Sequence record: PQ741806.1
DNA length: 64,000 bases
Source: Pseudomonas phage Pa_AttikonH10
Strand: one strand, 5' to 3'
Below, one piece after another: positions 1,695 to 2,857 of this stretch. The position numbers and the translations under genes were made by a program. Each line of letters opens with the position of its first letter. The stretch's first letter is position 1. The notes below the pieces were generated by a model. It did not search any database and had not been told where the DNA came from. It saw only the letters and a program-made list of their open reading frames with translations.

Positions 1695-1952
1695 CTATTT
1701 ATTTACACAGATTAGAGTATGTTCTACTTTACTAGTACTAGAAGAAAAATAACGTAATAGAACACCATCACTGATTTTTACAGTCTCTACATTATTACGA
1801 ATAGCACTTGCTTTAGCTAGTTTTTGAATGCGCTCAATCGCGCTAAAACAAGTAGCCATGTCAGAGAACTCAGCGGTTGACTGCGATGCACCATTGGCTT
1901 GATAACCAGCGATACTGATACTACTAAAAAGAATTGCTAAAGTTGCATTCAT
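1695..1952 (-). CDS. Small secreted or membrane-anchored protein (85 aa)
   Basis: N-terminal hydrophobic signal-like segment MNATLAILFSSISIAGYQANG. ATGA overlap with the upstream ORF. Confidence 0.45.
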   Translation of the reverse strand: MNATLAILFSSISIAGYQANGASQSTAEFSDMATCFSAIERIQKLAKASAIRNNVETVKISDGVLLRYFSSSTSKVEHTLICVNK

Positions 1953-2857
1953 TTCTTACCACCTTTAATAACAGTGAGTTTTGGTGTACCGGTAGGACGA
2001 GAAGGTTTATTAATAATAACCTGCGAATTGGAAGAATTATTGAAATCCTCAACCATCTTATTTACATCATTGTCAAATGAATTAGATGTATTATCACCCG
2101 AGTCCACAGTTGATTCACTAACCACATTTGAAATAGGGTAACTGAGGAGTTCCATCATAAGTACATTGATGTTATCCTGATAGTTTTCATTACGTGTACA
2201 ATTAATAACCCGCTCACACCAATCCATAATTAATTCTGGTGCATTCTGTTTAATTACAGTTACCGCTACTCTAATATGTGCATCTAATTCTGGATTACTA
2301 AATTCAGTTACTCTGTTAATGGCGCTTTCAATCATCTGATCATGCTCATTCTCAGATGTATTCCTTACAACTAACTTACCATTAGTGGTATCGGCTTTAT
2401 TTTTAAAATTAACCTCAGTGACATTACCTACGGTAGTTAATACTGGGTTTTTGTCAACTACATTATTAACAGTTCCTTCTAATGTTGCACGAATAGTATC
2501 TGCATTGAGATATCTATCTACTAGTGGCATTTCAAAGAATGCGTTAGAATTATCATCAATAGGTGTAACTACACCCAATACTGCATAAAGAGGAAGTTTA
2601 ATACTGACCCCAACTCCATTTACTGTTACATTGAAAGAGATATATTCGTCACTGATATAAAAATTCTTTGCACAGCGTGGATGGATATTGAAAGTGATAG
2701 TGTGATCTTCTTTCGCATGCTTTAGAGCTACCTCAGATAAATCAGGTACTAATTGAGTATGTGCTACAATTAGAATATCTCTGAAGTTATTCTCAAGAAA
2801 CCAATCATAGGTAGCTCGAAGAATATGGCCAGTGAGTAATGATTTTACCTTTAGCAT
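1949..2857 (-). CDS. sspB: SspB-like ClpXP adaptor protein (302 aa)
   Basis: The N-terminal ~110 aa aligns with E. coli SspB. LRATYDWFLENN matches LRAFYEWLLDNQ. NIHPRCAKN matches NIAPRAVGN. SDEYISFNVTVNG matches NDEVRFNARFGG. IKLPLYAVLGVV matches VSVPLAAVLAIY. The extreme C-terminus RPTGTPKLTVIKGGKK resembles the SspB ClpX-binding tail RPALRVVK. The two are joined by a ~180 aa N/S/D-rich linker. Confidence 0.7.
   Translation of the reverse strand: MLKVKSLLTGHILRATYDWFLENNFRDILIVAHTQLVPDLSEVALKHAKEDHTITFNIHPRCAKNFYISDEYISFNVTVNGVGVSIKLPLYAVLGVVTPIDDNSNAFFEMPLVDRYLNADTIRATLEGTVNNVVDKNPVLTTVGNVTEVNFKNKADTTNGKLVVRNTSENEHDQMIESAINRVTEFSNPELDAHIRVAVTVIKQNAPELIMDWCERVINCTRNENYQDNINVLMMELLSYPISNVVSESTVDSGDNTSNSFDNDVNKMVEDFNNSSNSQVIINKPSRPTGTPKLTVIKGGKK

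Follow-up and report, generated by a model that had tools for sequence, protein, structure and literature searches.

gp232 of a phiKZ-like Pseudomonas phage: a divergent SspB-family protein and candidate adaptor or decoy for host ClpXP

Sequence profiles and a predicted structure identify gp232 as a real, divergent phage member of the SspB adaptor family. Its most likely role, judged from sequence, is that of an early cytoplasmic adaptor, or decoy, for host ClpXP.

Phages manipulate host proteases. phiKZ is a model nucleus-forming jumbo phage and a phage-therapy candidate; its DNA is shielded in a protein shell and its cytoplasmic proteins are exposed to host ClpXP. A ClpX-docking phage protein could select host proteins for destruction in takeover, or phage proteins for protection. 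SspB/ClpXP controls the envelope-stress and mucoidy switch (MucA/AlgU) of P. aeruginosa, which is visibly activated in phiKZ infection. No phage SspB-type adaptor with a tested function was found in the literature searched. The discovery is modest, since SspB homology is already recorded in databases (related phages are so annotated). What is gained is a corrected domain map of gp232 and the definition of a conserved 39-residue tail (Table 1).

Table 1. Features of gp232 and its surroundings. Coordinates refer to the window, i.e. the whole stretch of DNA that was analysed (64,000 nucleotides, PQ741806.1).
Feature	Position	Strand	Basis or remark
gp232 (PHIKZ232), complete ORF, 302 aa	1949..2857	-	ORF list; stop codon 1949-1951
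SspB-like domain, residues 1-128	2474..2857	-	N-terminal helix, beta-sandwich, P-x-x-[DE]-R turn, short helix
Linker 1, residues 129-168, N/T/V-rich, predicted disordered	2354..2473	-	pLDDT <50; lowest sequence entropy in the protein; 51% identity to homologue P0002
Predicted four-helix bundle, residues 169-240	2138..2353	-	Specific to the phiKZ clade
Linker 2, residues 241-263, S/D/N-rich, predicted disordered	2069..2137	-	pLDDT <50; low entropy, low hydrophobicity; 38% identity to homologue P0002
Conserved tail module, residues 264-302, DVNKMVEDFNNSSNSQVIINKPSRPTGTPKLTVIKGGKK	1952..2068	-	Most conserved segment
First tail motif MVEDF, residues 268-272	2042..2056	-	Aligns with PLL[DEN]F(G) of other Pseudomonas jumbo-phage homologues
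XB-like (ClpX N-domain docking-like) motif TPKLTVIK, residues 291-298	1964..1987	-	PSSM, 15.1 bits
GGKK extension behind the XB-like motif, residues 299-302	1952..1963	-	Tail scans
gp231, 155 aa, no assigned function	2880..3347	-	ORF list and phiKZ annotation
Early-promoter-like element: T-run, then gaaatcTATATTAC	3557..3585	-	Sequence; 37 nt upstream of the gp230.2 start
Hairpin, 9-bp stem, terminator-like	3592..3613	-	Terminator scan and sequence; just upstream of the promoter-like element

The SspB-like domain

The proposal of a phage-encoded SspB homologue, made in an initial annotation, is borne out by PDB, NCBIfam and Pfam profile matches far beyond chance and by the predicted fold. A phmmer comparison with PDB SspB chains aligned gp232 residues 11-108 (E 1.4e-8, ~25% identity). 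Seven SspB models of NCBIfam match the protein (E 4e-13 to 1e-6), as do Pfam PF04386 (E 6e-5) and PHROG 8945, 'SspB-like' (E 2e-4). The Pfam score is below the gathering cut-off (23.5 bits vs 27) and the best NCBIfam score is below the equivalog cut-off of the PRK11798 'ClpXP protease specificity-enhancing factor' family (49.7 bits vs 202). Because of these scores under curated thresholds, gp232 is classified as an SspB homologue and not as an equivalog. In an exhaustive search, all matches outside the phiKZ clade spanned only the N-terminal (SspB) part of gp232; the proteins inspected among them have SspB-like N-termini or XB-type tails. Homologue searches seeded with alignments that included bacterial SspBs gave the same 11 proteins again.

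In the predicted structure, an N-terminal helix is packed on a small beta-sandwich, as in the SspB fold. Behind them is a family-specific P-x-x-[DE]-R turn, and then a short helix. The gp232 helix HILRATYDWFLENN aligns with YLLRAFYEWLLDNQ of SspB and is the best conserved block of the phmmer alignment. In bacterial SspB, the N-terminal helix is the dimer interface. All the blocks on which the homology was originally proposed are present: LRATYDWFLEN, NIHPRCAKN, SDEYISFNVTVNG, KLPLYAVLG, FFEMP and the end KLTVIKGGKK.

The description of this part as a conserved substrate-binding domain holds for the fold and fails for about ten of the most conserved SspB positions, which are substituted, and for the scores, which lie below the cut-offs. 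The changes are P11G, Y12H, T27R, P28D, P42S, A74V, R75T, F76V, E97I and G101S (E. coli numbering); these positions are those conserved in 74-90% of bacterial SspB representatives and were chosen by conservation. W20, N54, F72, G78, P86 and R15 (same numbering) are retained, R15 unlike in most other phage-family members. With about ten conserved positions changed, ssrA binding is therefore not assured and canonical ssrA recognition may be lost.

The middle region

The part of gp232 that follows the SspB-like domain had been taken for a single N/S/D-rich low-complexity linker of ~180 aa. It is instead divided into two predicted disordered linkers, a predicted helical bundle that lies between them and the tail module (Table 1). 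The AlphaFold model was built from a 12-sequence alignment. A single-sequence run (mean pLDDT 41.9) was unusable for the N-domain and the alignment-based run was used instead. Four helices are predicted at residues 169-238 (pLDDT 70-81). Values of pLDDT <50 are confined to residues 130-168 and 241-302; where SspB has a flexible linker between domain and tail, gp232 has predicted disorder that the bundle interrupts. Sequence entropy and hydrophobicity are normal over residues 166-245. N, S and D together make up 28% of residues 111-302 vs 19% of the N-domain.

Three other matches of gp232 were rejected. A Pfam FUR match (residues 115-195, E 0.0076) and methionine aminopeptidase matches (E >0.3) were considered noise. 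A similarity to the staphylococcal superantigen-like protein SSL7 (NF009887; 26.3 bits vs a cut-off of 313; PDB E ~0.003) was not adopted. It is repeated but marginal, and is much weaker in the close homologue P0002, with low AF2 confidence there; it is probably due to chance or compositional bias.

The C-terminal tail

The resemblance of the end KLTVIKGGKK to the ClpX-docking peptide of SspB, also claimed initially, stands up to scoring. The XB PSSM was derived from 94 bacterial SspB representatives, of which the C-terminal 8 residues were used. The motif TPKLTVIK scores within the range of genuine bacterial tails (5.8-23.5 bits, median 18.8), and its score was attained at any position by 9/5000 shuffled gp232 sequences. 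It is the top XB-PSSM match among the 104 window ORFs of at least 60 aa; no XB-GGKK tail or PLLDF motif was found in the other window ORFs. By sequence, it agrees with the XB consensus [KR]-P-x-L-[KRT]-[VIL]-[VI]-K, and endings in ...LTVIK or ...LTVVK occur among genuine SspB representatives of bacteria.

The view that the tail consists of an LTVIK-type end only proved too narrow: the conserved module covers the last 39 residues. In a homologue with 61% overall identity, the tail is 90% identical, the SspB domain 74% and the linkers 38-51%, which argues that selection acts on the tail. The XB-like motif of gp232 is not at the extreme C-terminus, being followed by the four residues GGKK. In each of the 15 phage-family members, the best XB-like match is separated from the C-terminus by 4-5 residues (very weak in one, P0150, at 0.5 bits). 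Behind the XB-like motif, 15/15 of these members have a further 4-5 residues of the type GG[KR]x, as against 0/134 other SspB representatives. The PLLDF/MVEDF-type motif is present in 14/15 members vs 5/134 other representatives.

Gene and genomic context

The ORF was confirmed over its exact span and length. It is on the minus strand, a point on which the initial annotation was silent; the plus-strand reading of the same interval was rejected, the frame being packed with stops. The protein is 100% identical to its counterparts in phiKZ, fnug, PA7 and KTN4, and was matched to the annotation PHIKZ232 (NP_803798.1).

The GC content of the gene is 34.5% vs 35.8% for the window. Recent capture from the host was rejected because GC content is phage-like and identity to bacterial SspB is only ~25%. 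From its composition, gp232 is considered ancient, with a GC content fully adapted to the phage.

gp231 is located directly upstream of gp232 and is separated from it by 22 nt; the two genes are therefore probably co-transcribed. The promoter-like element further upstream probably drives gp230.2-gp231-gp232. It includes TATATTAC, which we take to be the early-promoter core (after Ceyssens 2014). Early phiKZ promoters are AT-rich with a T-rich upstream part, and the element agrees with this description (PMC8244752). The extended motif recurs at 4 further intergenic sites of the window; at all of them a same-strand ATG lies 36-48 nt downstream. The terminator-like hairpin marks the end of the preceding operon. 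The middle-promoter motif AAANTTACC has no site near gp232 and is not enriched within the window.

Relatives in other phages

Syntenic orthologues are found upstream of thymidylate synthase in PhiPA3 (gp270) and Phabio. PhiPA3 gp270 and its homologues in PA1C/PS119XW/BRkr, Psa21, D6, RVTF4 and Phabio share the SspB-like N-domain with gp232. The two-part tail ([phi][phi][DEN]F, then XB-like motif and GG[KR]x) is common to PhiPA3 gp270 and the PA1C-, D6- and Psa21-type homologues. gp232 has the three features of this family of SspB-like proteins of Pseudomonas jumbo phages: the N-domain, the two-part tail and the place upstream of thymidylate synthase. The homologues are only 20-26% identical to gp232 and their middle regions are unrelated to its helical bundle. 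Most of them carry PLL[DE]F, ~15-20 residues and KP-x-LT[VL]I[KQ]GGKK, whereas gp232 has MVEDF. The tail of the Phabio homologue deviates and ends in ...RPSWMTVIDGGK. D6-type proteins have linear motifs of their own, YAVHG and PT..ELM.RKP.

Contrary to the impression that SspB had not been annotated in this lineage, the same protein is labelled SspB in the phiKZ-like phages Bobae and Churi. Elsewhere, the GenBank note of PhiPA3 gp270 reads 'similar to stringent starvation protein B', and the RVTF4 copy and proteins of Erwinia jumbo phages are annotated likewise. Phage SspB-like proteins have also been published: RAY gp039 (PMC10299810) and pf16 gp18 (PMC5587285).

gp039 of the Erwinia phage RAY was described in 2023 as a cytoplasmic SspB-like ClpXP adaptor of a nucleus-forming jumbo phage (PMC10299810). 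It is a phage SspB homologue like gp232 (with relatives in Ea35-70-like phages) and has the XB end KKPTLTVVK. It differs from gp232 by an architecture of the plain bacterial kind (150 aa, ending in XB, without inserted domain, PLLDF or GGKK), by a score above the Pfam threshold (29.3 bits vs 27) and by its genomic position. gp18 of the Pseudomonas putida phage pf16 was proposed in silico to be a competitive SspB, possibly acting in the RseA/RpoE (MucA/AlgU) pathway (Magill et al. 2017, PMC5587285). This protein of a T4-like phage is near the host type (its N-domain is 55% identical to that of an enterobacterial SspB) and appears to have been acquired recently.

Comparison with bacterial SspB

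Bacterial SspB (E. coli, H. influenzae; PDB 1OX9, 1OU8, 1OU9, 8ET3) is a ClpXP specificity-enhancing adaptor to which gp232 is ~25% identical. Both have the signature blocks, the N-terminal helix and a disordered region with a P-x-L-[RKT]-V-[VI]-K type motif behind it, close to the C-terminus. gp232 is longer (302 aa vs about 130-170) and has in addition the predicted four-helix bundle in the 'linker', MVEDF, and GGKK after the XB-like motif.

P. aeruginosa SspB (135 aa) brings AlgU-MucA(cyto) to ClpXP; its last 8 residues (R128-K135) account for ClpX binding (Kd 27 nM, 179 nM when alanine-substituted) (PMC13251409). Its folded N-domain takes the client and its disordered tail binds ClpX, a two-interface layout that is also predicted for gp232. 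Both proteins would be in the same cell and would share ClpX as a target. Compared by description with the host protein, gp232 is more than twice as long and has different groove residues and an extended tail.

Proposed role and alternatives

The favoured reading, held with moderate confidence, is that gp232 is an early, cytoplasmic SspB-family adaptor that docks on host ClpX and whose cargo probably differs from the ssrA tag or is not limited to it. The protein would be made early in infection, would remain in the cytoplasm of the host without entering the phage nucleus and would dimerise. Its tail would dock on host ClpX N-domains by beta-strand addition, as bacterial SspB does. Cargo of the SspB-like groove, and possibly of the helical bundle too, would be tethered to ClpXP and degraded. 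Since many positions of the groove region, invariant among bacterial SspBs, are altered, the ssrA tag is probably not the (only) cargo; a phage-chosen set of host or phage proteins is more likely. In phiKZ interaction proteomics, gp232 was found by mass spectrometry in infected cells and was absent from virions; mNeonGreen-gp232 was diffuse and outside the phage shell, and gp232 was enriched in the phage-shell preparation of the same study (PMC10449902). An antisense-oligomer knock-down study of phiKZ makes no mention of gp232. In PHROGs, phage SspB-like proteins belong to the category 'moron, auxiliary metabolic gene and host takeover'.

A decoy or anti-adaptor function is less likely. gp232 would fill ClpX N-domains via its two-part tail, or sequester SspB clients (e.g. 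ssrA-tagged proteins or the cytoplasmic MucA fragment), without productive hand-off. It would block host proteolysis that depends on SspB and on the N-domain, e.g. AlgU activation or the degradation of antitoxins and defence regulators. The tail, the most conserved part of the protein, is more elaborate than bacterial XB (second motif and GGKK), as expected if tight occupancy of ClpX is selected for. Groove positions are divergent, and the extra folded domain and the ~160-residue spacing could upset the geometry of hand-off. In P. aeruginosa, the adaptor that takes AlgU-MucA(cyto) to ClpXP is host SspB (PMC13251409). AlgU motifs were found at 78/423 new host transcription start sites in phiKZ infection, and the AlgU pathway is therefore in play (PMC8244752). 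A competitive-inhibitor role has already been suggested, in silico, for pf16 SspB (PMC5587285). However, AlgU-type transcription rises in infection, whereas blocked MucA degradation predicts the opposite. In addition, the SspB-like domain is under purifying selection (74% vs 38-51% for the linkers), which a pure ClpX plug would not need.

It is improbable that gp232 is an extra canonical SspB, binding the ssrA tag and boosting ClpXP clearance of tmRNA-tagged fragments. Such fragments would pile up as host mRNA is destroyed by the phage, and degrading them would return amino acids to the synthesis of phage proteins. The core fold, the retained invariant residues W20, N54, F72, G78 and P86, R15 (lost in most of the family), the XB-like tail and the PHROGs category are consistent with this function, but about ten strongly conserved SspB positions are substituted, the scores are far under the equivalog thresholds, and neither a length twice that of host SspB nor an added folded domain is explained by dosage.

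A ClpX-independent role, in which the SspB fold would be a generic peptide-binding or dimerisation module, e.g. on the cytoplasmic side of the phage nucleus, with the tail binding another partner, is likewise improbable: gp232 co-fractionates with phage-shell preparations and is enriched in them (PMC10449902), its tail has features foreign to bacterial SspB (PLLDF/MVEDF, GGKK) and the middle domains vary across phage lineages, but mNeonGreen-gp232 is diffuse and not shell-associated (PMC10449902), an XB-like match is at the same place in 15/15 family members (P0150 being very weak), adaptors combine an SspB domain and an XB-type end in exactly this way, and the simpler Erwinia homologue RAY gp039 has a canonical end, ...PTLTVVK.

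The adaptor reading can be extended to the family, although the extension is speculative and rather doubtful. The SspB-like proteins of Pseudomonas nucleus-forming jumbo phages would form a modular 'degrader' family with a retargeted groove, a lineage-variable cargo-selecting middle part (the bundle in phiKZ) and a two-part high-affinity ClpX tail ([phi][phi]DF and XB-GGKK) that outcompetes host SspB. If true, such proteins would redirect host ClpXP early in infection, and their targets could be defence or stress-response proteins, e.g. those of the MucA/AlgU axis.

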